From Tagaea sp. (GTDB lineage Bacteria; Pseudomonadota; Alphaproteobacteria; CACIAM-22H2): a DNA stretch of 64,000 nt. Shown here piece by piece: positions 1 to 17,481 of the stretch. The translations under genes and the position numbers were made by a program. The stretch is from positions 1,803,037 through 1,867,036 of the forward strand of contig OZ245798.1 of the NCBI GenBank assembly GCA_965228135.1, in the 5' to 3' direction. The notes under the pieces were generated by a model. It searched no databases, had not been told where the DNA came from, and was given only the letters and a program-made list of their open reading frames with translations. Position 1 is the stretch's first letter, and the number at the start of each line of letters is the position of its first letter.

Positions 1-830
1 GTCGACACGCGAAACGGATCCAGCGCCGCTTGCGTGACGATCCACGGGCTGACCGTCGTGGCGAAGACTTTCGCCTGGAACGGGCCCAAGGGCTGATATT
101 CCCAAGCCTGAATATCGCGTGCCGACCAATCGTTGAGCAGCACGTAGCCGAAGATGAGTTCGTCGGCTTGCGCCACAGACACGGGCGTCCCCATCTCGGT
201 CGAAGTGCCGATGATGGCTCCCATCTCGAGTTCGAAGTCGAGCCGCCGGCAGGGGCCAAAAATCGGAAGATCCGCGTCGGCCGGCTTCATCTGGCCGAGC
301 GGACGGCGAAACGGCGTCCCGCTTACGACGACGGTCGATGCGCGACCGTTATAGCCGATCGGAATGCTGAGCCAATTTGGCGGCAAGGCGTTCTCCGGCC
401 CTCTGAACAGCGTGCCGACATTCACCGCATGGTTCTTGCCGGCATAAAAATCAGTGTATCCGGCGACCTTGATCGGCAAATGCATCCGCACCGAATTCAT
501 CGGCCGAAGCGCTTCGCGCCGCAATGCCGTGTTGCCCGACAAGGCCGTGTCGCCGCCGTCCGTCAGAAGGTCGATAAGGCGCGCGCGGGTCTGCGCCCAT
601 TTGGCGCGCCCCAACGTCATGAAGGCGTTGAGCATCGGCTTGTCGAAGACCGGCCGGTCACCGGGCTTGAGCACACCGGCTTCCTCCAAGCGCGCGAGAT
701 CGACGACCCTATCGCCGATCGCGACACCGCAGCGCGGACGGTCGTCGCCGTCGCTGAACACGCCGTAAGGGAGATTGCGCGGCGAGAACTCGCAATCCGG
801 CGCGTTCGCCGATTGAATCCAGCTTTTCAC
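1..830 (-). CDS. fahA: fumarylacetoacetate hydrolase (fumarylacetoacetase); 3' end truncated by the window edge
   Basis: Minus-strand translation from a GTG at 830..828 (absent from the ORF track because it runs off the window) gives [26 protein letters not shown] ... [31 protein letters not shown] ... [20 protein letters not shown]. This is collinear with known fumarylacetoacetases; the GTG overlaps the hmgA stop (GTGA). Confidence 0.85.
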
Positions 831-2143
831 GATGAAGACCCCGAATGGACGGCGGCGTCGAAATGCTTGGTCAAGCTCGACCAGCAATCGGCATAACCGC
901 GTTGAAGGCTGGGCGATCGCGCCGCGAACGCCGTCGGCTGCTGCGGCAACCGCGTCTCGAACATGAAGGCGAGCGTGTTTTCGAGCTTGTACGGCGCCAG
1001 ATTCGAGTTGGTCGCCTTCAAGAACGCGTCATTGTCGGGCCCGTGCGGCAACATGCTGTTGTGCAGGCTGAAGCCGCCGGGCACGAAGCCTTCCTCCTTG
1101 GCGTCATAGCGGCCGTAAATCAGCCCCATGAATTCCGACATGATGTTCGAATGGAACCAGGGCGGCCGGAACGAGTGCTCGGCGACCATCCAGCGTTCCG
1201 GGAAGATCACGAAATCGACATTCGCCGTGCCCGGCTCGCCCGACGGCGACGTCAATACGGTGAAGATCGACGGATCGGCATGGTCGAACAGGATCGGCCC
1301 CATCGGGCAGAATTTCCGAAGATCGTATTTGTAGGGCGCGTAGTTTCCGTGCCAGCCGACGACGTCGAGCGGCGAGCGCGCGATATCAGCCGCATTGAAC
1401 GTACCGCACCATTTGACGATCATCCGCGACGGCGTCTCGCGATCCTCGAACGCGGCGACCGGCGTTTCGAAGTCGCGCGGATTGGCAAGGCCGTTGGCGC
1501 CGATCGGACCCAATTCGGGCAACGCGAAGCGCTGGCCGAAATTCTCGCAGACATAGCCGCGGGCCGGGCCGTCGATAAGCTCGACCTTGAATTTTACGCC
1601 GCGCGGCAGCACGGCGATCTCGCCCGGCCCGACCGAAAGCCGCCCCATCTCGGTGAAGAGCAGCAGACGCCCCATCTCCGGAACGACGAGCAGTTCGCCA
1701 TCCGCATTCATGAAGTAATCGTCGCGCATCGACGCCGTCGCCGTGAAGATATGAATCGCCGTCCCGACCTGATCGGCGACGCTGCCGCTGATCGTGATCG
1801 TCGCCATTCCTTCGACGAACGTGACGGGCCGATCGGGCAAAGCGATCGGGCCCCAGCGATGCTGCCCGAGTGCCAGATCGGGATCGATCGATTGGGGCGG
1901 CGACTTCCAGTTCGGCAGATCGATGCGCTGCAATCGCCCGATATGCCGGACGGAAGGCAAAATCCGATAGAGCCAGGACCGCGCATTCGTAGCGCGCGGC
2001 GCCGTGAACGCGGTGCCGGAAAGCTGCTCGGCGTAAAGCCCGTACGCGCAACGCTGCGGCGAATTCTGCCCGTCCGGCAGCGTTCCCGGGATGGCTTCGG
2101 TCGCGAATTCGTTCCCGAAGCCGGACATATAACGCAAGGTCAC
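827..2143 (-). CDS. hmgA: homogentisate 1,2-dioxygenase
   Basis: [13 protein letters not shown]...[24 protein letters not shown]...WLYRI...[14 protein letters not shown]...[13 protein letters not shown]...HGPD is a near-collinear match to HGD. The track ORF (827..2314) is N-terminally over-extended. The likely start is the GTG at 2143, 10 nt after GAGGAGG; an ATG at 2128 is the alternative. Confidence 0.93.
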
Positions 2144-2337
2144 GATCGTTTCGCCTCCTCCGCCGCCCCCGCGCGGGTCCGCCCAAAGACGCGCCGCCAG
2201 CAAGGATAACCACATTGATAGGGCCGCCTTGCGGTCCGACAAAGTCCCCTGCGGAGGTGACAAGCGCCGCCGGCATCGATTGAACGCGGTCTCCGGACAA
2301 TGGTAAAATCGCACTCAACAAAGCTCCGGAGGGCGCC

Positions 2338-3084
2338 ATGCTCGAGAACATCATCCTGGATATCGGTACCGAGCGCTTCGCCAAGACGCTGTTCGCCGAA
2401 ACCGTCGACGCGCTCGCCCCCCGTCATCTCGTCGTCTATCGCCATCGTCCCGACGCGCAAGTCGAATTGCTGTTCGCCGAAAGCGACGGCGACGATCCGG
2501 CGATGCGGCGCGCGATCCACGCCTATTCGACCGTTCTCCACGCGCGCGATCCCTTGCGCTCCCATACGCGCCCGCTCGCCAAACGGCGGCTGGATGTCCG
2601 GCATATCGAAGCGCGGGGTATCCGGGACGTGGCGTTCCGCAACGATCTTTACCGGCATCAGCAGATGCGCAGCAAAACGGCGATCGTCGTCCGCCGGCCG
2701 GAGGACGCGATCACGATCGGCATCTTCCGCGGCGAGGAGAAAGGCGCGCTGTCGGATGCGCAATGGAATTTCATCCATGGCGCCGCCGGTGTGATCGCCG
2801 CCGCGGTCGAACGCCACGCGTCCCTGACCGCCCGCCCGGCCGACATCGATTGGCGCGAGAAGCTCGCCGCGATCGAAACGGCACGAAAACTGTCGGCGCG
2901 CGAAATCGACGTTTGCGCACGGATACTCGACGGTCATTTCACGGAATCGATCGCGCTCAATATGGGCATCTCCGCGCATTCGGTGGTGACCTATCGGCGG
3001 CGCGCTTTCGCGAAGCTCGGCGTCGGAACGCGAAGCGAGCTTTTCAATCTCGTCGCCCGCGGCCCGCGGCGATTCGCGCGATAG
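2338..3084 (+). CDS. LuxR-family transcriptional regulator with a C-terminal HTH
   Basis: The C-terminus LSAREIDVCARILDGHFTESIALNMGISAHSVVTYRRRAFAKLGV is a LuxR/GerE-type HTH. It is divergent from hmgA-fahA, so it is the probable pathway regulator. Confidence 0.75.
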   Translation: MLENIILDIGTERFAKTLFAETVDALAPRHLVVYRHRPDAQVELLFAESDGDDPAMRRAIHAYSTVLHARDPLRSHTRPLAKRRLDVRHIEARGIRDVAFRNDLYRHQQMRSKTAIVVRRPEDAITIGIFRGEEKGALSDAQWNFIHGAAGVIAAAVERHASLTARPADIDWREKLAAIETARKLSAREIDVCARILDGHFTESIALNMGISAHSVVTYRRRAFAKLGVGTRSELFNLVARGPRRFAR

Positions 3085-3086
3085 GC

Positions 3087-4058
3087 TCAAATATCGAGCG
3101 TCAGCGACGGCGAGTTCGCGCGCGAAACACAAAGGCACATCCGGTCGTTCCGCGCCTTCTCGTCATCCGTCAGGTACATGTCGCGATGATCGGGAACGCC
3201 GTCGAGCACGGGCGTCAGACACGTGCCGCACACGCCCTGCTCGCACGAGACCGGCACGTCGATTCCTTGACGCGCCAAGGCGGCGACGATCGTTTCCGAC
3301 GCGTCAACATCGACCACGATGCCGCTGCGCTTGGCTTCGACCCGAAACCGACCGCCCGTTAAGGGCACGGCGTCGGCGGGCGCCGAGAAATATTCCTTGT
3401 GGAGCAGGTGTTCCGCCAAACCCGCCGCGCGCGCAAGGCTTAGCGCCACGTCCATGAAGGGCGCCGGCCCGCAAGTATAGACATGCGCCGACGGGCCCGC
3501 CGCCGCGATCGTCCGGACAAGCGCTGCTTGCGTCGCGTCGGCGTCCAGACCGGCAAGGATCGTCGCCGACGCGCGCAATTCGCCGCTTTCGAGAATTTCG
3601 CGAAAGGCGGCCGACGCCGGCGCGCGCACGAAGTAATACAAATGGAACTTCGCCCCGCGCGCCACGAGATGACGCGCCATCGCCAAGAGCGGCGTGATCC
3701 CGATTCCGCCGCCGAGCAACAGATGGAACCCGTCGCTTTGCGCGAGCGGAAAATTGTTGCGCGGGGCGCCGATCTCCAGAAGATCGCCCGGCTTCAGCCC
3801 GTCATGCACGAAGGCCGAACCGCCGCGCGACGCCGGCTCGCGCTTGACCGCGATGCGGTAGAAGCCGGTTTCGGCCGGCCCGTTGCACAACGAATATTGG
3901 CGCACGAGGCCGTTGGGCAGATGCAGATCGATATGCCCGCCCGGCGCGCCCGCGACGAAAGCGCCGCCGTCCTGCGGCGTCAGCTCCAGGGCGCGAATCC
4001 CCTCGGCCGCATCCCAGGCCTTGGTCACAAGCACCGCGATACGCCCGGCCATCGTCAC
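3087..4058 (-). CDS. VanB/phthalate-dioxygenase-reductase-like oxidoreductase (FMN/NAD-binding plus plant-type 2Fe-2S ferredoxin)
   Basis: RQYSLCN...FYRIAVKRE...GGS, GGGIGITPLLAMARHL, and a C-terminal CEQGVCGTCLTPVLDGVPDHRD 2Fe-2S motif. The start overlaps the P450 stop (ATGA at 4055-4058). It is a paralog of the reductase domain of the adjacent P450. Confidence 0.85.
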   Translation of the reverse strand: MTMAGRIAVLVTKAWDAAEGIRALELTPQDGGAFVAGAPGGHIDLHLPNGLVRQYSLCNGPAETGFYRIAVKREPASRGGSAFVHDGLKPGDLLEIGAPRNNFPLAQSDGFHLLLGGGIGITPLLAMARHLVARGAKFHLYYFVRAPASAAFREILESGELRASATILAGLDADATQAALVRTIAAAGPSAHVYTCGPAPFMDVALSLARAAGLAEHLLHKEYFSAPADAVPLTGGRFRVEAKRSGIVVDVDASETIVAALARQGIDVPVSCEQGVCGTCLTPVLDGVPDHRDMYLTDDEKARNDRMCLCVSRANSPSLTLDI

Positions 4059-6391
4059 TTCGCGATCTTCAACCGCGCGCCGCGCGCGCGCGAGCAGCAG
4101 CTCATCATCCGGCGCTGACCCGCGCGTTCGGCCGCCGTCAGCACCCGGTCGCGATGCTCGATCTCGCCCTCAAGCACTTCGACCTCGCACGTGCCGCACA
4201 GCCCTTCCTCGCAATCGCTAGGCACGTCGATTCCGACCGCGCGCAAGGATTGCAGCAGCGTGCCCTCCGGCGGCACGATCACCGTCAGATTGGAGTCCGC
4301 GAGTTCGACTTCGAAAGCGCTGTCTTGCGCGCCCGGCGCCGCCGCCGACGCCGCGGCGAAATATTCGAAGCGCAGGATCTCGTCCGGCAAATCGCGGGTC
4401 AAACCCTGCAACGCCTCGATCATCCGATCCGGTCCGCAGGCGTAGAACTGCGTGCCAGGCTTGCGCGCGGCGATCAACGCCGCGAGATCGGCGCGCTGGC
4501 CCTCGGCGCCGATATACAGCGATAGCCGTTCGCCGTGATCCGCCGCCAGCCGATCAACGAACGCCATGCCGGCGCGTCGGCGGCCGGCGTAATGGATCTC
4601 GTATTCCGCGCCGTCGCGTTTCAACCGATCGGCCATCGCCAGGATCGGCGTGATGCCGATCCCGCCGGCGATCAGCACGTGACGGGCGGCGGCGTCGTTG
4701 ATCCGGAAATGGGTGCGCGGCCCGCGAATCAGAATTTCGTCACCCACGCGGATGGCGTCGTGGAAATGCTTCGACCCGCCGCGCCCATCCGCCTCGCGCA
4801 GAATCGCGACGCGGTAATCGCGATCTTCGGGAAGGCCGCACAGCGAGTATTTACGCTCGAATCCGCCATGGATGAGTTCGATATGCGCGCCCGCCGCCCA
4901 ATTCGGCAAAGCGCGTCCCTTCGCGTCGGCCAGTGTCAGGCCGACGATCCCGTCGGCCTCGCGCGTCACCGTCCTCACGCGCACCGCGCGCGCGATCTCG
5001 CGCTTCGACGGCGCGCCAACCGTATAGGACGCGCGCGGCGCATGGACCGACTTGTCCGCACGCTCGGGATTGCGCGCGGGATCCCATTCGACCCAGAGAT
5101 GGTCGGGGCCGCGGAAGGAGGTGTTCGGCAGATAGCTGAAGACCTGGCCGTCGACCAAGCGCATATGCGGCAGACGGCGCGTGAACTCTTCCAGGAAGAT
5201 CCGCATCTCCATCCGCGCCAGGTTCTTGCCCATGCATTGATGGCTGCCATAGCCGAACGTCAGATGATCGACCGCGTTATCGCGATAGATGTCGAAAAAA
5301 TCGCCGTCCTCGAAATGGCGCGAATCGTGATTGCCCGACGCGGTCGCGATCAGCAGCTTGGCACCCGCCGGCAAATCGATGCCGCCCACCGTCACCGCGC
5401 GCGTCGTCTTGCGCCGCCACGCGACGACCGAGCCCGCGTAGCGCAGGCATTCCTCGACCGCGTTGGGAATGAGCTTGGGATCGGCGCAGATATCGTCCCA
5501 CGCCTGACGATGGGTCAGCAGCAGCTTGATCGCATTGGCGGAGGCATGGGCGGTCGTCTCGTGCGCCGCGACGATGATCGCCATCATCATCGAATGCAGA
5601 TAATTGTCGGTAACGACCTCCGGAATCACCTTGTTCTTGCGGATGGCGAAATGCATCCAGCCTTCGCCATCGGGGTCGGTGCGCATCTTGTCGAGGATAC
5701 GGCCCGCCAATTGCCAGAACTTGCCGACCGAATGCGCGACCTCGACCTGCTTTTCGGGCGACGGTCGGCCCCAAGTATTGACCGTATGCGCGATCGAAAA
5801 GCGCCGCAGCGTGTCCATGTCCTCCTCGGGCACGCCCAGGAAATCCAGCGCCACCGTCAGCGGGATCTCCCACAGCATTTCCTCGACCAAATCGGCCTTG
5901 CCGCGGTCGATGAAGGCATCGACCTTCGCGCGCGCATGGCCGCGGATCGCGCCCTCCAGCTTGGCGAGATTTTCCGGCAGGAAATGGTCGAGCAACGCGC
6001 GCCGGCGCTCCATATGGACGGGCTCGTCCTCGTTCACCAGCGTGCGCTTCATGCCGTAATCGTAGCTTTGCAACACGCGCGTCGCTTCGTCGGAGAAGGG
6101 CGTGATTTTCTCGAGCACGTTCTCGGGCGAGAAGGTGATGTTGTCGCGGAAGATCGCCTTGATGTCCTCGAAGCGGCTGACGACCCAGTAGTCGAGCTTC
6201 GGGCTGTAGAACACCGGCTCGCGCTCGCGCGACCAGCGCAACGCGTCCGCCGGATCGACCTGATAGGGACCCTGGAACGGATCGAACGCGGCCGCGTCGT
6301 GCGATACCGGGCACGCGCCCGCCGGTTTCGCGGCCGCAGCACCGTGGAACGGGCAGCCCGCGGCGTTTGAATCCTGTCGCTGGGTTGACAT
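4055..6391 (-). CDS. self-sufficient cytochrome P450 (CYP116B-like): P450 haem domain fused to a PDR-like FMN/2Fe-2S reductase domain
   Basis: The N-terminal ~440 aa carries the haem-thiolate loop FGYGSHQCMGKNLARMEMRIFLEEF and AHETTAHA (I-helix). The C-terminal ~320 aa carries RKYSLCG, GGIGITPILAMADRL and CEEGLCGTCEVEVLEGEIEHRD. This is the architecture of P450RhF/CYP116B enzymes. Confidence 0.9.
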   Translation of the reverse strand: MSTQRQDSNAAGCPFHGAAAAKPAGACPVSHDAAAFDPFQGPYQVDPADALRWSREREPVFYSPKLDYWVVSRFEDIKAIFRDNITFSPENVLEKITPFSDEATRVLQSYDYGMKRTLVNEDEPVHMERRRALLDHFLPENLAKLEGAIRGHARAKVDAFIDRGKADLVEEMLWEIPLTVALDFLGVPEEDMDTLRRFSIAHTVNTWGRPSPEKQVEVAHSVGKFWQLAGRILDKMRTDPDGEGWMHFAIRKNKVIPEVVTDNYLHSMMMAIIVAAHETTAHASANAIKLLLTHRQAWDDICADPKLIPNAVEECLRYAGSVVAWRRKTTRAVTVGGIDLPAGAKLLIATASGNHDSRHFEDGDFFDIYRDNAVDHLTFGYGSHQCMGKNLARMEMRIFLEEFTRRLPHMRLVDGQVFSYLPNTSFRGPDHLWVEWDPARNPERADKSVHAPRASYTVGAPSKREIARAVRVRTVTREADGIVGLTLADAKGRALPNWAAGAHIELIHGGFERKYSLCGLPEDRDYRVAILREADGRGGSKHFHDAIRVGDEILIRGPRTHFRINDAAARHVLIAGGIGITPILAMADRLKRDGAEYEIHYAGRRRAGMAFVDRLAADHGERLSLYIGAEGQRADLAALIAARKPGTQFYACGPDRMIEALQGLTRDLPDEILRFEYFAAASAAAPGAQDSAFEVELADSNLTVIVPPEGTLLQSLRAVGIDVPSDCEEGLCGTCEVEVLEGEIEHRDRVLTAAERAGQRRMMSCCSRARGARLKIAK

Positions 6392-6410
6392 CGAATTACC
6401 TCTTCGCTCG

Positions 6411-7112
6411 CTAATGCCCCAGGAACGCGTGACGGACCCTGGGATCGTCGATCAGATCGCGCGCGCACCCATCGAGCAGCACCTTGCCCGCGGACATGAC
6501 GTAGGCGCGGTCCGCGATGCCGAGAGCGGCCTTCGCGTTTTGCTCGACCAGGAGAATGGAAGTGCCGCGCTTGCCGAGCTGGGCGACGACCTGCATGACT
6601 TGCGCGACGATCATCGGCGCCAATCCCATGCTCGGTTCGTCGAGCAGCAGGCAGCGCGGCCGCCCCATCAACGCGCGCGCGATCGCCAGCATCTGCTGCT
6701 GGCCGCCCGATAGCGTGCCCGCCGGTTGCGTCAAACGCTGATGCAACACCGGGAAGTATCCGAACACTTCGTCGAGAAGCGCCTTGTCCAGCGCGCCGCC
6801 ATGCGCGTAGCCGCCCAGGCGCAGATTGTCCTCGACGGACAGGTTGGTGAAAACCTGCCGTCCTTCGGGCGATTGGACGAGGCCGCGCGCGACGCGCCGA
6901 TGCGCGGGGCACCGGCGCAAATCCTCGCCGTCGAATCGGATGGCGCCGCTTTTGATCGGCATCAAACCGGATACGCAACGCATCAGCGTCGTCTTGCCCG
7001 CACCGTTGGCGCCGATCAGCGCCACGATTTCACCCGCGTCGACCCGCAGGTCGACGCCGTGAAGAACTTCGATCCGGCCATAGGCGGCGGCGACGGCGGT
7101 GATCTCAAGCAT
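6411..7112 (-). CDS. ABC transporter ATP-binding protein, LivF type (branched-chain amino acid / HAAT family)
   Basis: GANGAGKTT Walker A, LSGGQQQMLAIARAL signature, LLLDEPSMGLAP. The track ORF extends to 7214; the true start is MLEITAV at 7112, overlapping the LivG-type stop. Confidence 0.88.
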   Translation of the reverse strand: MLEITAVAAAYGRIEVLHGVDLRVDAGEIVALIGANGAGKTTLMRCVSGLMPIKSGAIRFDGEDLRRCPAHRRVARGLVQSPEGRQVFTNLSVEDNLRLGGYAHGGALDKALLDEVFGYFPVLHQRLTQPAGTLSGGQQQMLAIARALMGRPRCLLLDEPSMGLAPMIVAQVMQVVAQLGKRGTSILLVEQNAKAALGIADRAYVMSAGKVLLDGCARDLIDDPRVRHAFLGH

Positions 7113-7881
7113 GGGAATCCGCCTCCACGCCCAGATACGCTTCGATGACCAGCGGATCGGCTGCCACTTCCCGCGGCATGCCCTGCGCGATCTTTCGCCC
7201 GCCGTCCAACACATAGACGTAGTCGGACACGGACATCACCATTTCCATGTCGTGTTCCACCAGCACCATCGAAAGCCCGTCGGCACGCAGTTGCTCGATC
7301 AGTGCCCTGATTTCCGCCGTCTCGACGGCGTTGCAGCCGGCCGCCGGCTCGTCGAGCAACAGAAGCTTGGGCGAGGTCGCCAAGCTGCGCGCGATCTCCA
7401 GCCGTTTCATCTGGCCGTAGCTGAGACTCGTCGCCGGCCATTCCGCCTTGTCGGCGAGATCGACCCGGCGTAGCAATTCGACCGCGCGTTCGGCCATGTA
7501 TTTGCGTTCGCGATGCATGCCGGGCGCGCCGAGCAGATTGGCGAGCAGCGAGGCCTGGCGATGCTGATGGAAGCCGACCATCACGTTCTCGACCGCCGAA
7601 AGCTGGTCGAAGATGCGCAGATTTTGGAAGGTCCGCGACAACCCCATCCGCGCCAGTTCGTGCAAGGATTTGCGCGCGATATCCATGCCCTCCAGCACGA
7701 GCCGCCCGGCGCTGGGCTGGTAGACGCCGGAAATCAGATTGAACAATGTCGTCTTGCCCGCCCCGTTGGGGCCGATCACCGCGGTCACGCGTCCGCGTTT
7801 GGCCGACATGCCCACCGATTGCAGGGCCGCGATGCCGCCGAATTCGACCGACAGATTCTCGACGTTCAGCACGTCATCCAT
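7105..7881 (-). CDS. ABC transporter ATP-binding protein, LivG type
   Basis: GPNGAGKTTLFNLISG, LSYGQMKRLEIARSLA, LLLLDEPAAG. Confidence 0.88.
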   Translation of the reverse strand: MDDVLNVENLSVEFGGIAALQSVGMSAKRGRVTAVIGPNGAGKTTLFNLISGVYQPSAGRLVLEGMDIARKSLHELARMGLSRTFQNLRIFDQLSAVENVMVGFHQHRQASLLANLLGAPGMHRERKYMAERAVELLRRVDLADKAEWPATSLSYGQMKRLEIARSLATSPKLLLLDEPAAGCNAVETAEIRALIEQLRADGLSMVLVEHDMEMVMSVSDYVYVLDGGRKIAQGMPREVAADPLVIEAYLGVEADSHA

Positions 7882-8839
7882 GGCGGTTGCCCTTGCGTAA
7901 AGCGAGTAGCGAAGGCACCAGGCCGCGGCCCAGGAAGACCATCGTCGCCATCATGATCAAACCGATGAAGGTCTGTTCGTACTCGCGCACGAAGGTCAGC
8001 ACCTGGGGCAGCAGCGTCAGCATCGCCGCACCGACCATCGCCCCGGATACCGACGTGGCACCGCCGAGCACGGCCATGGTCAGGAATTCGACCGAATGCA
8101 GCAGGTGCGCAGCCGACGGATCGACGAACTCGTTGAACTGGGCGAACAACGCGCCCGCCAGCCCCGCATAGGCCGACGCGATCGTGAACGCGGCAAGCTT
8201 TTCCTTCGCCACGTCTACGCCCAGCGTGCCGGCGGCGACGTCCGATCCGTGCAGCGCCACCAAGGCGCGGCCCGATGCGCTATGACGCAGATTGATCGCG
8301 ACATACATGCCGATCAGCGCGATCGGCGCGATCAGCCAATACCAGGCGGCGGGCGTCGAAAGCCGCAAACCCAGCACCTGGAAAATCTGACGTACCGCCG
8401 GCACCTGCACGGCCATTCCGTCCGATCCACCGGTCAGCCAGCGTTCATTGCCCGCGACCAGCGTCACCAGCACGCCGAAGGCGAGCGTGACGATGGCCAG
8501 ATACGGGCCTTTGAGACGCAGGATCGGCCGGCCGATCGCCCAGCCGGCGATCGTGGCCGCGAAGGTTCCCGCCGCCAGCGCCAACACGGGATGGATGCCG
8601 AATCGATCGGGCAGAATCGCGCAGACATAGGCGCCGATGCCGAAGAAGCCGGCATGCCCCAAGCTCGCGAGCCCCGCATAACCCAGCAGGACGACGAGCC
8701 CCAACACCGCCAGGCCGTTGATCATCACCAGCGTGGCGACACGGTAGTGATAGTTCGTCTGGAAGAAGAACGGCAGGACGATGATCGCCGCCAGCGCGAT
8801 CAGGACAGGCAGATAGATGTTCGAGCCGAGCTTGCGCAT
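7874..8839 (-). CDS. ABC transporter permease, LivM type
   Basis: Polytopic hydrophobic protein of typical LivM length and layout; it overlaps the neighbouring genes by a few nucleotides. Confidence 0.8.
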   Translation of the reverse strand: MRKLGSNIYLPVLIALAAIIVLPFFFQTNYHYRVATLVMINGLAVLGLVVLLGYAGLASLGHAGFFGIGAYVCAILPDRFGIHPVLALAAGTFAATIAGWAIGRPILRLKGPYLAIVTLAFGVLVTLVAGNERWLTGGSDGMAVQVPAVRQIFQVLGLRLSTPAAWYWLIAPIALIGMYVAINLRHSASGRALVALHGSDVAAGTLGVDVAKEKLAAFTIASAYAGLAGALFAQFNEFVDPSAAHLLHSVEFLTMAVLGGATSVSGAMVGAAMLTLLPQVLTFVREYEQTFIGLIMMATMVFLGRGLVPSLLALRKGNRHG

Positions 8840-8840
8840 G

Positions 8841-9713
8841 TCAGACGCGCTCCTGCAACGCGCGGCCGAACAGACCGTTGGGCATGAAGATCAGCACCAG
8901 GATGATGACCAGGAAGGGGCTCGCTTCCTTATAGGCGGAGGAGATCCAACCCGCCGTGATCGCTTCGATCAGGCCGATCGCCAAACCACCCACGACGGCG
9001 CCCAAAGGCGAACCCAGCCCGCCGAGCATCGCGCCCGCAAAGCCCTTAAGGGCGAGCGGAATGCCGATCTCCGCATTGGTTAGCGTGATCGGCGTCACCA
9101 GAATGCCGCCCAGCGCCCCGACCGCCGCCGAAAGGCCGAAGCTCAACGACACGACGAAATTCGTGTCGATGCCCACGAGCCTTGCCGCGTCGCGATTATT
9201 GGCCGCCGCCAGCACCGCCTTGCCGATCAGCGTGCGGGTGAAGAAGACGAACAGTGCCGCCAGGATCGCAGCGGTCGAACCCATGACGACCAGGCTTTGG
9301 ATCTGAACGGTGGCGCCGGCGATGCGCAGCGGCGCGTCGCTAAAAAGCGGTGGCAGACTGTGCGACTGCTTGTCGAAGACGATCTGCGCGATCCCGCGTA
9401 CGAAGATCGACGCGCCGATCGTGATGACGATGAGGGAGACGGTCGAACTGCTCTGCGCCGGTTCGATCGCCAGTTTCTGCAGCGCCAAGCCGCAGGCGAT
9501 CGCCACGACAATGGCCGCGGCGGCGGCGGCCGGCAAAGGCAAACCCCAATAGGCGAGGAAGACCGTCCCCATGCCGCCAAGCATCACAAACTCGCCCTGC
9601 GCGAAGTTCACGACGCTGGATGCGTTGAAGATGATGATCAGGCCCAGCGCAATCAGCGCGTAGATGGCGCCGACCGTCAGGCCCGAAAAGAGAATCTGGA
9701 GGATATCGGCCAT
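8841..9713 (-). CDS. ABC transporter permease, LivH type
   Basis: Hydrophobic BPD permease; the likely start is MADILQILFSGL at 9713 (track ORF starts at 9767). Confidence 0.8.
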   Translation of the reverse strand: MADILQILFSGLTVGAIYALIALGLIIIFNASSVVNFAQGEFVMLGGMGTVFLAYWGLPLPAAAAAAIVVAIACGLALQKLAIEPAQSSSTVSLIVITIGASIFVRGIAQIVFDKQSHSLPPLFSDAPLRIAGATVQIQSLVVMGSTAAILAALFVFFTRTLIGKAVLAAANNRDAARLVGIDTNFVVSLSFGLSAAVGALGGILVTPITLTNAEIGIPLALKGFAGAMLGGLGSPLGAVVGGLAIGLIEAITAGWISSAYKEASPFLVIILVLIFMPNGLFGRALQERV

Positions 9714-9809
9714 TGTCCTGGGGGGGAGTGGGTGTCGGGAGACGGGAAGCGCGTCCGGCGCCGGCATCGCCGTCTTGCGGCGGAAATGCCGGCGCGGTCG
9801 CGGCTATGC

Positions 9810-10967
9810 TCAATCGTCGAGCAGCGCCCAGCGGCCGTTCTTCACCTGGATCATGCGGAACGACGTATCGCCCAGTCCCATGTGATCGGCCGGCGTCATC
9901 GTCACGATGCCAGTCGTCGCCACCAATCCCTTGGTCGCTTCGATCTGATCACGAATCTTTACGGGCGATGCGGATTTTCCTGCGCGTTCGATCGCCCCGA
10001 CCAGGATCGCAAAGGCGTCGCGCGCGTAACCGGCGTAGGATGACACGGGTTCGTTGTGCTTGCCTTCGTAGGCGCGCTTGAACTCGACCGCGACCACCTT
10101 CTGCGGATCGTTCGCCGGCAGCAATTCGGCGACCAGCAGCACTGATGCCGGCAGGCGAATACCTTCCGCCGCCGCACCGCTCAGCTTCAGGAAATCGTCC
10201 GAAGCAACGCCGTGCGATTGATAGAACGGCGTCTTCATGCCGAGCTGGGCGTAGCCCCGCGTGACCACCGCCGAGCTGTGGCCGAAACCCGGATTGATGA
10301 TGGCACCGACCCCCGCAGCGGCGCGGATGCGGGTCAATTGCGGAGTCATGTCGGCGTCGCTGTCCTCATAGGTCTCGTCGGCGACCACGCGCACTTTCGC
10401 CTCTTCGGCGGCGATCTTGCACTGCTGACGCATCGAAGCGCCTGTACCGCCGTTGCTGGAGATCAGCGCCACACCATCGATTCTGCGGCGGACGATATCC
10501 GCGAAGATCTTGCGGCAAGCCATCAAGTCGGTTTCAGGCGTCTTGAAGACGAATTTTTTCACCGGCTCGACGATCGTGATCGCGCTAGCGAGCGAGATCA
10601 GCGGAATCTCCGCCGATTCGAAGACCGGGATCATCGCCATCGTCGCAGGCGTCGTCGATCCAGCGATCGCAGCGACGATCTTGTCTTCTTCGACCAGACG
10701 CGTCGCGAATGTTTTGGCGCGGTTGGGATTTCCGGCGTCGTCATAGACGACCAGGCGCACGCGCTCGCCGTTGATACCGCCCTTGGCGTTCACCTCGTCG
10801 ACCAGCATGCGCAGCGTCTTGGCTTCCGGATCTCCCAGGAACGAAGCGCCCCCGGTGATCGCCAGCGACGCGCCGATCACGATTTCGGCACGCACCGCGG
10901 AAACGCCCGCCAGCAGCGTCGCACCGACCGCGAATGCACAAATTCCGCCCAAAAATCTGGATTTCAT
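9810..10967 (-). CDS. periplasmic substrate-binding protein, LivK/Leu-Ile-Val-binding family (ligand possibly aromatic)
   Basis: Signal peptide MKSRFLGGICAFAVGATLLAGVSAVRA followed by a type-I periplasmic binding fold. It is the first gene of the minus-strand operon that ends with the P450 and reductase. Confidence 0.8.
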   Translation of the reverse strand: MKSRFLGGICAFAVGATLLAGVSAVRAEIVIGASLAITGGASFLGDPEAKTLRMLVDEVNAKGGINGERVRLVVYDDAGNPNRAKTFATRLVEEDKIVAAIAGSTTPATMAMIPVFESAEIPLISLASAITIVEPVKKFVFKTPETDLMACRKIFADIVRRRIDGVALISSNGGTGASMRQQCKIAAEEAKVRVVADETYEDSDADMTPQLTRIRAAAGVGAIINPGFGHSSAVVTRGYAQLGMKTPFYQSHGVASDDFLKLSGAAAEGIRLPASVLLVAELLPANDPQKVVAVEFKRAYEGKHNEPVSSYAGYARDAFAILVGAIERAGKSASPVKIRDQIEATKGLVATTGIVTMTPADHMGLGDTSFRMIQVKNGRWALLDD

Positions 10968-10989
10968 GATGCTTCCTCCCTTGGCGACG

Positions 10990-11060
10990 ATGCGCCGTGA
11001 TTGACTTTTGTCGAGCCGTTATTTACGTATTGTAAAAATCGTTTACGACGTTTTCATACA
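10990..11060. promoter_or_regulatory. divergent promoter region with TTTACG-type direct and inverted repeats (candidate IclR/LuxR operator)
   Basis: AT-rich cgttatttacgtattgtaaaaatcgtttacgacgttttcatacatcac between the transporter operon and the VanA-like gene. Confidence 0.3.
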
Positions 11061-11118
11061 TCACGATCTCGGGCACGGTCAAGCGCCGGAAGCGAACGAA
11101 AGAACGAAAGGGAAGGAA

Positions 11119-12186
11119 ATGCCGTATTTGCAGAACGCTTGGTACGTCGCGTTGTGGGGCGACGATCTGCCGCCCGGCGCGATCCAATCGCGCCGCATTC
11201 TCGATGTGCCGTTGGCGATCTATCGCGGTCATGACGGACGTTTGTCCGCGCTGACCAACGCATGCCCGCATCGCTTCGCGCCGCTGTCGGAAGGCAAGGT
11301 GCTGGCCGACGGCACGCTGCAATGCCCCTATCACGGCCTGCAATTCGATGGCACGGGCCAATGCGTGCGCAATCCGCACGGTGCGGGCCTGATCCCGCGC
11401 GCAGCGCAGGTGCGCGCCTTCACGGTGCATGAAAAGGATGGCATCGTGTGGATATGGATGGGTGCGCAAACGCCCGACATCGCCAAGATCCCCGCCTATC
11501 CGATGCTCGGCGAGCCCGGCCGCCCGCGCTCGAAGAAGGATTGGCTGCGCATCAATTCGAGCTATGAGCTGATCATCGAGAATCTTCTCGATCTCAGCCA
11601 TGTCAGCTTTCTGCATGACGGCATTCTGGGGAATTCGGAAACCGTCACCGCCAAGATCAAGGTCCATCACGAAGGCGACGTAATCCGCGTCGATCGCGAA
11701 ATGACCGACGTGACGAGCCCCGGCCTGTTCGACCTGCTTTACCGGCGCGACGCCGGCAAGGTCGATATGTGGACCAACATCACCTGGACGGCACCCGCGA
11801 CTTTGGTCAACGACGCGGGCGTAGTCGACGTGGGCAAGCCGAAATCCGACGGAACCGGCATTTTCGGCCATCACTTCCTGACGCCCGAGACCGCGCACAC
11901 GACGCTCTATCATTTCTGCGCCGTAATGCAGAATCCCCTGCCCCACGCGGCGGACGACGACGTGCGCCGCCAATTGACGGATCTGCGCCGCAAGGCCTTC
12001 GACGAACAGGACAAGATGATCATCGACGCGCAGCAGCGCGCCCTTCTCGATCCCGCGATCGATACGCAAAAGCCGGTGATGCTGGAGATCGACGCAGGCC
12101 CGATGCGCTTTCGCCGCCATCTTGAAAAACTGATCGCGGATGAAGCCGCGCGCGCGCGCCTGGCCGACCAGGCCGTCGGCGGATGA
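11119..12186 (+). CDS. Rieske non-haem iron oxygenase, VanA-like (class IA, phthalate family; O-demethylase or hydroxylase oxygenase component)
   Basis: Rieske CPHRFAPLSEG...CPYHGLQFD; the start is ATG at 11119 after AAGGGAAGGAA (the track ORF at 11008 is over-extended). Confidence 0.85.
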   Translation: MPYLQNAWYVALWGDDLPPGAIQSRRILDVPLAIYRGHDGRLSALTNACPHRFAPLSEGKVLADGTLQCPYHGLQFDGTGQCVRNPHGAGLIPRAAQVRAFTVHEKDGIVWIWMGAQTPDIAKIPAYPMLGEPGRPRSKKDWLRINSSYELIIENLLDLSHVSFLHDGILGNSETVTAKIKVHHEGDVIRVDREMTDVTSPGLFDLLYRRDAGKVDMWTNITWTAPATLVNDAGVVDVGKPKSDGTGIFGHHFLTPETAHTTLYHFCAVMQNPLPHAADDDVRRQLTDLRRKAFDEQDKMIIDAQQRALLDPAIDTQKPVMLEIDAGPMRFRRHLEKLIADEAARARLADQAVGG

Positions 12187-12575
12187 GCGGCAACGTTACC
12201 CGGCTGCGGCGCGCGGACGCCGGCGAGATTCGTCCGATCGGTACGCGCGACCTCGCGGCGCGCGCGGGCCGGCCGGACGCGGACGAATCCGCGATCGTCG
12301 CCGACGCATGGCGTCTCTTGCGCGGACAGGTGCCGCTCCGGATCGCCGAACAATTCCCGCGCGGCGGATTCCTCGATGCGACACACGAGTTGTGCGAGGC
12401 GGTTTTCGGCGGGGCGCTATGCGCCTTGACGCTGGAATATACCTCGCGCGGCGGCCCCTATCGCGCCACGCTGCGTCTCGCGGCGCCCGACCGGATCGCA
12501 ACGGGCGAAAGCGCCCGCTCCGCCGCGATGGCGCTGATCGTCGCCTTGTTGGACGGCAATCACAACCGCCCGTAA
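12183..12575 (+). CDS. hypothetical 130-aa protein translationally coupled to the VanA-like gene
   Basis: The ATG overlaps the oxygenase stop (ATGA at 12183-12186) and ends 23 bp before the iclR start. There is no recognisable motif, and it could be spurious. Confidence 0.3.
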   Translation: MSGNVTRLRRADAGEIRPIGTRDLAARAGRPDADESAIVADAWRLLRGQVPLRIAEQFPRGGFLDATHELCEAVFGGALCALTLEYTSRGGPYRATLRLAAPDRIATGESARSAAMALIVALLDGNHNRP

Positions 12576-12597
12576 CGTCGGGCCGAAGGCAAGTCAC

Positions 12598-13353
12598 GTG
12601 TCGAAGGAAGATAAAGACATCGCGGGCATCCAGTCGATCGAAGTCGGCGCCGCGATCCTGTTTGCGCTCGCCCAGATCGGCCGCCGCGCCACGCTCAACG
12701 AAATCGCCAGCGCCACCGGCATGGTGCCGGCCAAGCTGCATCGCTATCTGGCCAGCATGATGAAATCCGGGCTCGTGGTGCAGCCGAAGAAGGCGGGCGT
12801 CTACGCGCTGGGGCCCGGCGCCATCCGCATCGGCCTCGCCGCCCTTCAGCAGAACGATTTCTGCACCATCGCGACCCAGCATTTGGGCGAGATTCGCGAC
12901 GCGCTCGACGTCACCTGCTTCGGCGCGGTGCTCGGCAAGCAAGGTCCGACGATTTTCGCCCAGGAAGTGGCCGCCAACAACGTGGCGGTCTTCGTGCGTG
13001 TGGGTTCGGTTCTGCCGATGGAAAATTCCTCAACTGGCTGGGCTTTCGGCGCGTTCATGAGCGACAGCCAATACCGCGCCGTCTGCGGCATCGAGCGCGC
13101 CCGCGCGCCGGAAGCTACGCTCAAACGGCACCGGGAAGTGAAAAAGCATGGTTGCGCGCGCATTACGGACGAATATGTGCGGGGCATCAGCGCGATCTCC
13201 TATCCGGTATTCGGGCTGAACAACGCGATCGAGGGCGTGATCACGGCGCTGGGCGCGACCGGCAATTTCGATAACGCGGTCGACGGCCTGATTTCGAAGA
13301 AATTGCGCGAGGTCGCCAGCCAAATCGGCCGATCGCTGGGCGCGAACGTCTAA
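12598..13353 (+). CDS. IclR-family transcriptional regulator
   Basis: N-terminal wHTH (RATLNEIASATGMVPAKLHRYLASMMKSGLV) plus a C-terminal IclR effector domain. IclR regulators commonly control aromatic catabolic operons. Confidence 0.85.
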   Translation: MSKEDKDIAGIQSIEVGAAILFALAQIGRRATLNEIASATGMVPAKLHRYLASMMKSGLVVQPKKAGVYALGPGAIRIGLAALQQNDFCTIATQHLGEIRDALDVTCFGAVLGKQGPTIFAQEVAANNVAVFVRVGSVLPMENSSTGWAFGAFMSDSQYRAVCGIERARAPEATLKRHREVKKHGCARITDEYVRGISAISYPVFGLNNAIEGVITALGATGNFDNAVDGLISKKLREVASQIGRSLGANV

Positions 13354-13418
13354 AGCGATTTTGGTTCGATTTGCCACTATCCGGCGGCGATGCAGCGTGC
13401 GGATGCTCCAACGAAAAA

Positions 13419-13448
13419 GGGCCCGGACATGCGGTCCAGGCCCTTATT
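13419..13448 (+). terminator. intrinsic terminator-like hairpin after iclR
   Basis: GGGCCCGGAC-atgcg-GTCCAGGCCC followed by TTATT, with an A-run upstream. Confidence 0.5.
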
Positions 13449-13461
13449 CACTTCAAACCAA

Positions 13462-13531
13462 TGATGGGCGATGTAGGGCTCGAACCGACGACAAGCTGAT
13501 TAAGAGTCAGCGGGTAGGTCGAACTAATCCC
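13462..13531 (-). pseudogene. tRNA-Lys(CTT)-like fragment; the 3' half is intact and the 5' half is degenerate
   Basis: On the minus strand, an anticodon arm GCTGA-CTCTTAA-TCAGC (anticodon CTT), a T-arm GTCGG-TTCGAGC-CCTAC and an acceptor 3' strand ATCGCCC-A. The upstream GGGATTAG... cannot form a D-arm or pair with the acceptor. It sits exactly at the left GC-content break. Confidence 0.4.
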
Positions 13532-13958
13532 AAAGCTCAAGCGCGTCCCTCAACGAGGACGATATTGCTTATGCTTTGACCGAAAAGTCATTTCGAAGGA
13601 CTCTCAGTCCTACGTGATGATCGCTAAATCAATTGGTAAACGGCATTAAGTGGCATGCCCCAGGATTGTTGGATACCAATATAGGTATCTGGCTTGATGG
13701 GGTCGATGGCCCCTGCATCTAGCCTTACGGTGCCGTAGGCTAGTGGCCTTTAACCAGCCAGGGGAGACAGTCCACCCCATCAGGCCAGTAGTGACGTTAC
13801 CTTTGCCCGATAACGATTACGGCCTCCTTCAGGCATTAGAAGTTCTGACCGTTGAGCAACTATTGCGAAGCTTGCCACTAAAGCTTTCGCAGTATCCCTT
13901 CTCCCAAGGGCATTCAGAGCCGATAAACAGCGACTTCGAACAAATCTGCGCGAGCTAG

Positions 13959-14204
13959 TCACTTACCTGAGGCAGGCTTGGCACGACGAAAGCGCTGGGC
14001 AGGTGTCAAAAGGCCGTGCGAGGTCGATCTGAGCGCGACAGCAAGCTTGTCGAGCATATCCAATGACGCTGCGTAACGCTCGGTCTCCAGAAGCGAAACA
14101 TAGCTGCGGTCAATACCCGCAGCCATCGCCAGGGCTTCCTGGGACATCGCCCGCTCCCGCCGGATACGGCGCAAATTGATTGCCAAAACCCGTCTCGACC
14201 GCAT
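13959..14204 (-). CDS. XRE-family (Cro/CI-type) HTH transcriptional regulator
   Basis: LRRIRRERAMSQEALAMAAGIDRSYVSLLETERYAASLDMLDKLAVAL. A 60-aa ORF (13780..13962) is coupled downstream by a GTGA overlap. Confidence 0.75.
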   Translation of the reverse strand: MRSRRVLAINLRRIRRERAMSQEALAMAAGIDRSYVSLLETERYAASLDMLDKLAVALRSTSHGLLTPAQRFRRAKPASGK

Positions 14205-14313
14205 TCCCGGAGGGGACCAAGTTGCGGCCGAACGATCCACAGAGTATATTCAACAAATTATACTCATAGCCTGTACCCATCAGCAGGCAGGAATCCGCCT
14301 CGCGGCAACCAAG

Positions 14314-14961
14314 CGAATGGCTATCGAGGAGGAGCAATTCAAAGTGCTCGGACGACGGGACGCCCCCGCAGCCCCTGATATACGAAAGCGCCGTCGCTGG
14401 CCGTTTTGGCTCGCTGTCGCGGTCATCACCTGGCTAACGACCGAGAGCGTTTATGACCATCTTCGCCAAGCGCGTCTTGCCAAAGAAGATTCAGTAGAGG
14501 GCCGCGCATTTCGCGCGGAACAGGAGATAGCGGCAGCGGCCAAGGAACAAGCGGCGGCCAGCCGTTACAATGCAGAAAAAGCACGTGCCGCATTCCGAGC
14601 TCTTCCAGAAAAAGATCGAGTTACTCAGGCTGCCATGGATGAGGCCTTCCGCAATCCTGGAAAGAAGCCAAGACTCGCAGATGGTTACTTCATTACCATC
14701 GGCGACTACGGGATCGGTACCTCGGGATGGTATGGAAATATCTGGGTAGCCCGCGATGAGACTACCAAGCCATCGACTTGGTGCGAGTGGGCTGAAAGCT
14801 GGTTTTCATGGGTATGGCGCTGTACCAGCGTCCGCATATGCAGGGACTTCTGGCGCGGTTTTCGTTCTGGCCTTTTATTCATTGTCGTCGATCGCAAACA
14901 GCCGCCCATTCGAGCCTGCCGCGATCCTATTACCGGACTATGGAACAATTATAAGTTCTAG
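14314..14961 (+). CDS. hypothetical membrane-anchored protein (island cargo)
   Basis: Divergent from the XRE gene; it has one TM (WPFWLAVAVITWLTT), a charged A/E/K/R-rich middle and a Trp-rich C-terminus. The start is taken at MAIEEEQ; the track ORF begins at 14176. Confidence 0.4.
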   Translation, partial: RMAIEEEQFKVLGRRDAPAAPDIRKRRRWPFWLAVAVITWLTTESVYDHLRQARLAKEDSVEGRAFRAEQEIAAAAKEQAAASRYNAEKARAAFRALPEKDRVTQAAMDEAFRNPGKKPRLADGYFITIGDYGIGTSGWYGNIWVARDETTKPSTWCEWAESWFSWVWRCTSVRICRDFWRGFRSGLLFIVVDRKQPPIRACRDPITGLWNNYKF

Positions 14962-15042
14962 AAAAATAATTCCATCATCCTCTAATATAAGTCCAATATC
15001 ACCAATCACTGCCCAATCGGCAATGTTTCATAGGCGGCTAAA

Positions 15043-15477
15043 ATGGATCGAAGCGACGCAGCCCGGGAGCTCATGGCGATTTTTCTTGAAACGAAGAGTG
15101 TCCCGACGCCCGATCAACTGATCGCGCGAATTGAGAAAGTTGGAGCTCTTCAAAATCGAGCTCATCCCCTACTTCGCCCCATTACTCGTCAAGAAGCTGT
15201 CGAACTTGCGCAAGGCTCAATGCCGCAAGGGCTGGCCTTACATCGTTTCCGGCGCGCAGAGACGATGTGCGTTTGGATATCTGCCCATCGACGACTATAT
15301 CCTGACGCCTCGACTGACTGGCTCGAAGAGCTTTTCACTATTTTCGAATGGTCGCGATCGGGCTGCGAGGAAGGCGGCGAACTCGGATGCGACTGGATTT
15401 TCGCCGTGGAACACTTTGAAGGTCGCCCGAAGCTTATTCGAGATCCGATCGAAATTTCTCGCTCGAATTTCTTTTGA
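15043..15477 (+). CDS. hypothetical protein (island cargo)
   Basis: 144-aa ORF in a low-GC stretch with no recognisable motif. Confidence 0.35.
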   Translation: MDRSDAARELMAIFLETKSVPTPDQLIARIEKVGALQNRAHPLLRPITRQEAVELAQGSMPQGLALHRFRRAETMCVWISAHRRLYPDASTDWLEELFTIFEWSRSGCEEGGELGCDWIFAVEHFEGRPKLIRDPIEISRSNFF

Positions 15478-15783
15478 CGACTCTATGTCTCAGAACATCT
15501 CCCAATCCGCATTCACTCAACAACGTGATCGGCAGACGCAAGTGCCCACTCAACGTTCTCCCATCCGTTTCCTTCCAGAAAAGGCAGGCTTCCAATGGAA
15601 CCCGATGAAAACGAACAAAAGGAAGTCGGCGCGACCGAAACATCGCTACCGCCCTTATCACCAGATGAGCGGCGTTATATGCCCATGATGGGTTTTTTTC
15701 ATTGCTTCAAGCCCGTCGTTTGGCTGCGAAACTTGGAAGGCCACGGGCCGACGCCGCCTAAGGCAGACAAAGCCGATACCTAA

Positions 15784-16152: not shown

Positions 16153-16262
16153 GCCAGGCGATGCATACGATGGAACGGCTCGACAAAAACTGCGCGTCTA
16201 GCATCCGGGTAAAGGCAAACGGCTAAGCCGACGGCATGGACAAAAAACCGACTTCGCGGTTG

Positions 16263-17222: not shown

Positions 17223-17288
17223 GAAGCATGCTCCTCAGTTTGCGTGCGCGCTTTCGAGTGCGCCCTAACAAACCGATTATCCACGACC

Positions 17289-17424: not shown

Positions 17425-17450
17425 ACTGCCCCTACACTTGCCCTTGTCCG

Positions 17451-17481
17451 CACCGGGCGCTCCCGATGGGAGCGCCCGGTG
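17451..17481. repeat. perfect 14-bp inverted repeat with a 3-nt spacer
   Basis: CACCGGGCGCTCCC-gat-GGGAGCGCCCGGTG in the relaxase upstream region. Confidence 0.8.

Follow-up and report, generated by a model that had tools for sequence, protein, structure and literature searches.

A CYP116B P450 fusion beside hmgA and fahA in Tagaea sp. marks a probable 2-hydroxyphenylacetate cluster with a Rieske oxygenase module

Introduction

For almost 20 years after the discovery of the CYP116B cytochromes P450, in which the haem domain is fused to its own reductase, their natural role was not identified; it was settled only between 2021 and 2025. Here we ask what such an enzyme does in the alphaproteobacterium Tagaea sp., where its gene lies about 1.9 kb from hmgA and fahA, two genes of homogentisate breakdown. 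The locus opens a stretch of 64,000 nucleotides (assembly GCA_965228135.1, contig OZ245798.1, positions 1,803,037 to 1,867,036, forward strand), which we call the window. An earlier reading of the letters alone (the sequence-only reading) had noticed a P450-PDR fusion gene and an extra PDR-like reductase gene between a LuxR regulator and a Liv-type uptake system, next to hmgA-fahA, and had proposed that the P450 hydroxylates aryl-acetates, or hydroxylates or O-dealkylates aryl ethers, to feed HmgA. Listing of open reading frames (ORFs) and Pfam and NCBIfam scans confirmed all of these genes at or near the positions given to them. Our analysis suggests, with a probability of about 0.8, that the genes of region 1–13353 of the window form a cluster for breaking down 2-hydroxyphenylacetate (2-HPA), or a close aryl-acetate, by way of the homogentisate pathway.

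The same logic operates in Aspergillus nidulans, where the P450s PhacA (CYP504A1) and PhacB (CYP504B1) hydroxylate the ring of aryl-acetates to yield homogentisate for HmgA. These fungal P450s are membrane-bound, come from unrelated families and require a cytochrome P450 reductase; their substrates are phenylacetate and 3-hydroxyphenylacetate (3-HPA).

The fused P450 and its predicted substrate

Genes of the window were called from the ORF listing, the translations and the two domain scans. The P450 gene (4055–6391, reverse strand) encodes a protein of 778 residues with the Pfam domains p450, DmmA-like_N/NAD_binding_1 and Fer2. Solved CYP116B-type chains align with it over its full length (HMMER scores of 1073 bits for 6kbh and 942 bits for 6laa, which we take to be the CYP116B46 holoenzyme, as we also take 6gii to be CYP116B46), and it matches the haem-domain chain named P450 RhF. 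Identity is 61.9% over 96% of the length to the homologue of Cupriavidus metallidurans CH34, the CYP116B1 strain, and 61% to that of Burkholderia multivorans, in both cases above the 55% that the CYP nomenclature rule sets for the subfamily. In a 27-sequence alignment (A1), the haem motif FGYGSHQCMG (C386) and AAHETT occupy invariant columns, as do RxYS (R513/Y515/S516), GGIGITP (G576–P582) and the 2Fe-2S cysteines C727, C732, C735 and C765. With every cofactor motif invariant, the fused reductase domain appears to be intact; the PDR structure 2pia matches residues 477–775 at 1e-49. On this sequence evidence the fused P450 is an ohpA-type member of the CYP116B subfamily (class VII, self-sufficient P450-PFOR). 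It shares with P450 RhF (CYP116B2), CYP116B1, B5, B46, B234 and B305 the order haem–flavin mononucleotide (FMN)/NAD(P)H–2Fe-2S, a length of about 770–790 residues and the haem and cofactor motifs. It is nevertheless a new sequence in the subfamily, since we found no relative above 74% identity; that nearest relative comes from locus L081 and the next, at 71%, from Chelativorans (L010).

A function for this type of enzyme is already published. OhpA, the CYP116B enzyme of Cupriavidus pinatubonensis JMP134, is a 2-HPA 5-hydroxylase that makes homogentisate (Donoso et al. 2021, PMC8449657). Knockout of ohpA abolished growth on 2-HPA only, leaving growth on 3-HPA and 4-hydroxyphenylacetate (4-HPA), while complementation restored the trait and transfer of ohpA enabled Pseudomonas putida KT2440 to grow on 2-HPA. 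OhpA extracts had activities of 952 U/g on 2-HPA, 44 on 3-HPA and 31 on 4-HPA. Across six genera the presence of ohpA and growth on 2-HPA matched perfectly, and strains of both C. metallidurans and B. multivorans grow on this compound (PMC8449657). Homogentisate is likewise made from 2-HPA in vitro by CYP116B234 (Kundral et al. 2025, PMC11889516) and by CYP116B305, with the same reaction cited for CYP116B46 (PMC12126322).

We then compared the five positions that vary among the characterized CYP116B enzymes, mapped through the 6laa alignment, out of 18 described pocket residues. T206, W207, S321 and V322 of the Tagaea enzyme are as in OhpA and CYP116B234, and V92 is as in CYP116B46; at a tier-2 position the enzyme has a valine where OhpA and CYP116B234 have an alanine. 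Every one of those pocket variants oxidizes 2-HPA (PMC11889516, PMC12126322). By homology, the P450 is thus likely to be a 2-HPA 5-hydroxylase. The proposal that it hydroxylates an aryl-acetate to feed HmgA was right in kind, being established for its homologues OhpA, CYP116B234, B305 and B46, although the substrate expected from this literature is 2-HPA rather than phenylacetate or 3-HPA. The suggested aryl-ether route fared less well, as O-dealkylation is only a weak side activity of CYP116B enzymes (PMC12126322).

The homogentisate genes and the importer operon

The hmgA gene (827–2143, reverse strand) encodes a homogentisate 1,2-dioxygenase with both Pfam domains, HgmA_N and HgmA_C, and scores 656 bits against the equivalog TIGR01015 (cut-off 511). 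It starts with GTG at 2143, about 10 nt downstream of a GGAGG. Its stop codon overlaps the GTG start (830–828) of fahA as GTGA. Only the N-terminal part of fahA, about 276 codons (1–830, reverse strand), lies within the window, the rest running off the left edge; this fumarylacetoacetase fragment still scores 369.6 bits against TIGR01266 with only 275 of about 420 residues present. As the sequence-only reading had remarked, a maleylacetoacetate isomerase is not seen: among roughly 30 larger ORFs scanned in the rest of the window we found no such isomerase or glutathione S-transferase, no hppD and no paa genes. The three-enzyme homogentisate set is thus incomplete locally, with HmgA and FahA encoded but no GST-zeta-type isomerase (MaiA/HmgC) among the larger ORFs scanned. 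In JMP134, hmgC is unlinked too (PMC8449657), so its absence from the window is no argument against the pathway.

Upstream of the P450 gene lie, all on the reverse strand and identified by Pfam, livF (6411–7112), livG (7105–7881), livM (7874–8839), livH (8841–9767) and the gene of the importer's periplasmic binding protein (9810–10967, Peripla_BP_6). Downstream of it follows a stand-alone PDR/VanB-type reductase gene (3087–4052, reverse strand; FMN/NAD(P)H/2Fe-2S, Pfam NAD_binding_1 and Fer2) coding for 321–323 residues, with its start, at 4052 or 4058, abutting or overlapping the P450 stop codon. From the binding protein to this reductase, genes overlap or are at most 42 nt apart, and we therefore consider them a single operon that is headed by the importer and closed by the reductase.

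The importer shares the Peripla_BP_6 fold family with the leucine/isoleucine/valine transporters (LivJHMGF) and would operate like them, but its binding protein does not look specific for these amino acids. Its best matches in the PDB score 1e-43 to 1e-34 and LivJ/LivK only 1e-12; the best matches are proteins that we take to be aromatic-acid binders of Rhodopseudomonas palustris. The closest annotated homologues (55–59% identity) sit inside paa clusters on plasmids of Paracoccus denitrificans PD1222, Phyllobacterium and Pannonibacter, each accompanied by the same four membrane and ATPase genes, and another homologue in this identity range adjoins a PaaK-like ligase gene in Acidimangrovimonas (L004). 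Because LivJ/LivK score poorly and the nearest annotated homologues are in paa clusters, the importer is most likely an aryl-acetate uptake system and not an amino-acid transporter.

These importer relatives in phenylacetate clusters raise the question of whether the physiological substrate of the P450 is another aryl acid, be it phenylacetate, 3-HPA by analogy with PhacA and PhacB, or 3-(2-hydroxyphenyl)propionate. Hydroxylation of 3-HPA at position 6 would likewise give homogentisate, and for CYP116B305 the dissociation constant (KD) of 3-(2-hydroxyphenyl)propionate, 0.4 uM, is as low as that of 2-HPA (PMC12126322). We nevertheless consider another substrate unlikely. OhpA extracts are about 20–30 times less active on 3-HPA and 4-HPA, and the ohpA mutant retains growth on both (PMC8449657); phenylacetate is bound about 100-fold more weakly by CYP116B305, and four CYP116B enzymes spanning the pocket variants all turn over 2-HPA preferentially (PMC12126322). 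The Tagaea P450 has the same pocket residues at the compared positions. A 2-HPA substrate for the P450 remains the reading that we follow below.

An IclR regulator and its candidate operator

The importer-P450 operon diverges from a second operon across an intergenic region of 151 bp (10968–11118), and both transcription units leave this region. The second operon, on the forward strand, begins with the gene of a VanA/DdmC-family Rieske non-haem-iron oxygenase, alpha subunit only (11119–12186; Pfam Rieske and VanA_C), continues with a translationally coupled small conserved ORF of 130 residues (12183–12575) and is followed by an IclR regulator gene (12598–13353; Pfam HTH_IclR and IclR_C). The sequence-only reading had stopped short of these three genes, which belong to the same unit.

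In JMP134, ohpA is co-transcribed with ohpT, which encodes a TctC-type binding protein, from a 2-HPA-specific promoter and adjoins the IclR gene ohpR; the 2-HPA-specific induction requires the ohpR-ohpT promoter region (PMC8449657). The IclR protein of the window is 67% identical to the one encoded beside VanA-like and P450 genes in L081 and 42% identical (E 9e-56) to the one divergent from the CYP116B gene of B. multivorans. Its identity of 35–42% extends to the IclR proteins of six beta-proteobacterial CYP116B loci only, and these are exactly the loci that carry the motif described next. Alignment of the divergent promoters of the window, L081 and L082 left a single conserved block, TTACG-N15-TTACG, whose exact form occurs once in the window, at 11023–11047 (forward strand, TTACGTATTGTAAAAATCGTTTACG). 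Scanning 107 loci (1.88 Mb, with a composition-based chance expectation of about 1.3) returned eight matches, one each in the six beta-proteobacterial loci, L081 and L082, and all eight sit in an intergenic region of the IclR/ohpT/ohpA type. To test the prediction, we then fetched two more loci, one from the chromid of C. metallidurans CH34 and one from a plasmid of B. multivorans; each contained one exact copy in the predicted place.

Within Burkholderiales the element, a candidate OhpR operator between the IclR gene and ohpT/ohpA, was located in L064, L065, L069, L072, L075, L078, L108 (2830–2854) and L109 (3870–3894). The beta-proteobacterial consensus, TTACGCAwTGCGTA-N6-wTTACG, amounts to a 13-bp palindrome with a third half-site; the accessible text of Donoso et al. 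2021 (PMC8449657) names no such OhpR operator element. The copy in the window overlaps the -10 of a promoter-like site directed towards the importer operon. From the homology of the regulator and the confinement of the motif to loci with that type of IclR, we infer that the window IclR is an OhpR orthologue and that 11023–11047 is its probable operator. Two further matches with one mismatch in the window are at chance level. The one-mismatch copy at 13797–13821, just inside the low-GC element described below, is probably due to chance, with 1.3 expected at this stringency.

The LuxR/GerE regulator gene (2338–3084, forward strand) lies between hmgA and the reductase gene, divergent from the former and convergent with the latter, with a promoter-like site nearby at 2280–2309. 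Its product has a GerE helix-turn-helix (HTH) at residues 184–236 and is homologous over its full length (25–28% identity, E 4e-22 and 2e-18) to two GerE regulators in L083 (5871–6674 and 12358–13155), which are encoded near a 55%-identical VanA-like gene, a small ORF and an IclR gene. Members of this family have about 250–265 residues and an uncharacterized N-terminal domain; the window protein had no Pfam match outside the HTH, and a PDB sequence search with the N-terminal domain gave no matches.

The Rieske oxygenase, a small protein and the stand-alone reductase

The VanA-like oxygenase has DdmC as its best PDB match (2.4e-60), although identity to DdmC is low, as judged by eye from the alignment. 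Its translation contains the Rieske motif CPHRF...CPYHG and the iron motif D-x2-H-x4-H as DLSHVSFLH. Two DdmC residues, N230 and H251, which presumably contact the carboxylate of the substrate, are conserved as N231 and H252, while DdmC W285 is replaced by leucine. Like the DdmC and VanAB O-demethylases, the protein combines Rieske and VanA_C domains and would have a PDR/VanB-type reductase partner, so that by sequence the features of a VanA/VanB-type two-component system (Rieske and iron motifs, PDR-type reductase) are all present. Only two close relatives were found, in L082 (78%) and L081 (70%), and a metagenome scan for close relatives yielded at most 42% identity. In L081, the VanA-like gene is divergent from the 74%-identical CYP116B gene and is followed by the 67%-identical IclR gene; in L082 it is divergent from a binding protein gene of the same type, with the small ORF and an IclR gene after it.

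The small protein belongs to a rare family, with 17 matches among 1.84 billion representative proteins, of 112–155 residues and with an invariant W...L...G...GGPY. Members lie in the window (12183–12575) and at L082 1672–2106, L083 9100–9450, L112 1445–1912 and L115 11101–11466. In five of five informative contexts the VanA-like gene comes immediately before the ORF, and the stop codon of the one often overlaps the start codon of the other. AlphaFold2 gave a confident model (pLDDT 89) with an alpha-beta3-alpha core. Unlike VanAB and DdmABC, relatives of the window module have the gene of this third, rare-family protein between those of the oxygenase and the reductase: in L112/L113, overlapping genes encode a VanA-like protein (53%), the small protein (41%) and a reductase 50% identical to that of the window.

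The sequence-only reading had implied that the extra reductase is an accessory of the P450, and an auxiliary or replacement electron donor, with the VanA-like oxygenase as an unrelated neighbour, would fit a gene that abuts the P450 stop codon within the same operon; nor does a reductase gene adjoin the VanA-like gene in L081 or L115. Several observations nevertheless make this very unlikely. The P450's own reductase domain has all its cofactor motifs intact, a stand-alone PDR-like gene is found near CYP116B in only two of 80 other loci, and the reductase gene closes an operon that leaves the same operator-bearing promoter region as the VanA-like gene. VanA-family (class IA Rieske) oxygenases need a PDR-type reductase partner. 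The reductase is 50–58% identical to stand-alone PDR/VanB oxidoreductases and 50% identical to the one that follows the VanA-like gene and small ORF of L112, but only 39% identical to the reductase domain of the P450. For this reason we assign it to the Rieske oxygenase as its inferred partner, relocated to the end of the ohpA operon, and not to the P450. The same figures led us to reject its origin as a recent duplicate of the P450's reductase domain.

The module is also found with another kind of fusion. In L115 (JGI contig Ga0164242_10001774, 2045–11466), one operon encodes a P450-PFOR fusion, a Liv-type importer and a VanA-like protein (56%), with the small ORF at its end and an IclR gene divergent from it. 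We considered whether this P450-PFOR (736 residues) is a CYP116B orthologue and rejected it, as identity is 32% and the haem domain is CYP199-like; in L115 the Rieske module is paired with a P450-PFOR fusion a second time, independently. The module thus recurs beside P450-PFOR fusions that presumably act on aromatic acids. As L081 and L115 have no stand-alone reductase gene nearby, one could speculate that the Rieske oxygenase there borrows the fused reductase domain of the P450. A separate example is the Roseomonas mucosa plasmid p1-AD3 (L104, 8986–16659), where two VanA-like genes, each beside a reductase gene, are interleaved with IS5, IS21, a MarR regulator and an MFS transporter, which illustrates the mobility of such modules.

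Searching the literature for a link between a Rieske oxygenase and 2-HPA or ohpA, we found nothing relevant, and the Rieske set, which we infer to be co-regulated with ohpA, appears to be the unpublished part of the locus. It is possible, although on balance rather doubtful, that the VanA-like oxygenase, the small protein and the VanB-type reductase produce 2-HPA, either by 2-hydroxylation of phenylacetate or by O-demethylation of 2-methoxyphenylacetate.

Linkage of CYP116B genes to hmgA

Our sample consisted of 80 CYP116B loci taken from other genomes together with flanking sequence of up to 10 kb. Ten of them, spread over at least six lineages, have hmgA no further than 10 kb from the CYP116B gene: Billgrantia, Marinobacter (two), Caenispirillum, Paracoccus, Brevundimonas, Aurantimonas, Acetobacteraceae (two) and one metagenome-assembled genome. 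Three arrangements occur, and in four loci hmgA is 79–129 nt downstream on the same strand. With one hmgA per genome of 3–5 Mb, 0.3–0.5 loci would be expected by chance, so the observed number is about 25 times the expectation (binomial P about 1e-11). The linkage of CYP116B to hmgA is therefore non-random. Neighbouring hmgA genes beside ohpA homologues had been noted in several actinobacteria, Caenispirillum and Marinobacter (PMC8449657).

The commonest neighbour of CYP116B in this sample is a divergent IclR gene (about 53–60 of the 80 loci). The uptake systems vary: TRAP in 20–25 loci, MFS in eight, TctC in seven and Liv-type ABC (ATP-binding cassette) in few. The TRAP genes (DctPQM) downstream of CYP116B occur mostly in marine Rhodobacterales and Stappiaceae. 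This census indicates that, as in JMP134, a regulator and an uptake system accompany the CYP116B P450.

From the thiocarbamate hydroxylation by CYP116B1 and the alkane growth reported for CYP116B5 (PMC8449657), and from the 70 of 80 loci with no hmgA nearby, one might suppose that the P450 oxidizes xenobiotics in general, or alkanes or thiocarbamates, and stands beside hmgA-fahA by coincidence. This is highly improbable given the 25-fold excess of linkage, the OhpR-type regulator with its predicted operator, the aromatic-acid-type importer with which the operon begins and the perfect match of ohpA with growth on 2-HPA over six genera (PMC8449657).

The rest of the window

Beyond the catabolic cluster and the IclR gene, the window contains unrelated genes. 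Directly after the IclR gene comes a segment of low GC content (13400–23254; 0.52–0.56 against 0.63–0.68), in which several ORFs are without a Pfam match and others encode a MobA/MobL relaxase (17613–21074) and a large serine recombinase (21582–23243). A tRNA-Phe gene (23179–23254, reverse strand) marks its end, and the recombinase ORF as listed extends 65 nt into this gene on the opposite strand. The segment is probably an integrated mobilizable element; a search for its borders found no att-type direct repeat of the 3' end of tRNA-Phe. An Rfam scan of the window detected tRNA only. After tRNA-Phe follow housekeeping genes, including hisD, hisG, murA, leuA, ugd and mipZ. The HisD protein falls into one cluster, at 90% identity or more, with proteins from Tagaea metagenome-assembled genomes.

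Discussion

The locus can be set beside the ohpR-ohpT-ohpA locus of JMP134, in which OhpA is Reut_B5278 (PMC8449657) and for which C. gilardii, C. metallidurans CH34 and B. multivorans served as stand-ins in our comparison. Both have a CYP116B P450-PFOR fusion, an IclR regulator and a functional link to HmgA and FahA, and in both the P450 gene is joined to the binding protein of an uptake system, by co-transcription in JMP134 and within the same operon in the window. The three stand-ins and the window carry the same TTACG-N15-TTACG in the regulatory region. The differences are equally clear. The window P450 is only about 61–63% identical to the JMP134-type homologues. Uptake is by a complete five-gene Liv-type ABC system, where JMP134 has a single TTT (Bug/TctC) binding protein; the IclR gene is downstream of the Rieske operon, whereas ohpR is divergent from ohpT; and hmgA-fahA adjoin the cluster, whereas those of JMP134 are elsewhere on the secondary chromosome (PMC8449657). 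The window further adds the Rieske oxygenase, the small ORF, the VanB-type reductase and the LuxR regulator.

We propose that the Liv-type ABC importer, of the kind found in paa clusters, would take up the aromatic acid. The CYP116B fusion, as the predicted OhpA orthologue, would use its own FMN/2Fe-2S domain to relay electrons from NAD(P)H and hydroxylate C5 of 2-HPA to give homogentisate, as four homologues do. HmgA would then open the ring and FahA would hydrolyse fumarylacetoacetate, with the isomerase presumably encoded elsewhere in the genome. Judging from the conservation of the motif, the IclR regulator may act on both operons, the one that runs from the importer through ohpA to the reductase and the VanA-like one, by binding TTACG-N15-TTACG in the promoter region between them. 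Together with the small protein, the VanA-like oxygenase and the stand-alone reductase would make up a separate oxygenase system, co-regulated with ohpA, which would most likely turn a related aryl-acetate into 2-HPA or some other pathway substrate.

Some of our observations weigh against a 2-HPA cluster of this kind. The agreement in the pocket covers five of the 18 described residues only, the nearest characterized relatives are only about 60–68% identical, and CYP116B enzymes are promiscuous in vitro. The paa-cluster relatives of the importer point to phenylacetate rather than 2-HPA as its ancestral ligand. The operator of the window is more degenerate than its beta-proteobacterial counterparts, with TTGTAAA in the second half of the palindrome where the consensus has TGCGTA, and the motif scan of the window found no copy upstream of hmgA or the LuxR gene, so co-regulation of hmgA-fahA with ohpA is unsupported. 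Linkage is a minority arrangement as well, since hmgA is missing within 10 kb at 70 of the 80 loci. The sequence-only reading had held that its proposal would fail if the cluster were unlinked in relatives; the ten linked loci speak for linkage overall, but the two closest relatives, L081 (74%) and Chelativorans L010 (71%), have no hmgA nearby in the sequence available.

The route from a CYP116B P450 to homogentisate has been in the literature since 2021, and the window is a new, alphaproteobacterial example with ohpA beside hmgA-fahA; it backs the published function of CYP116B enzymes without extending it. Our comparisons suggest that the 'Liv-type' importers of ohp and paa clusters are aryl-acetate transporters. 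The candidate OhpR operator, kept from Burkholderiales to this alphaproteobacterium, could help to define ohp regulons and to build 2-HPA biosensors. Where 2-HPA comes from 'remains unclear' according to Kundral et al. 2025 (PMC11889516), and the rare three-gene Rieske module beside P450-PFOR fusions is a testable candidate for its source. If the module does produce 2-HPA, it would answer that question, and the cluster would be a complete route, independent of coenzyme A, from an aryl-acetate through 2-HPA and homogentisate to fumarate and acetoacetate.

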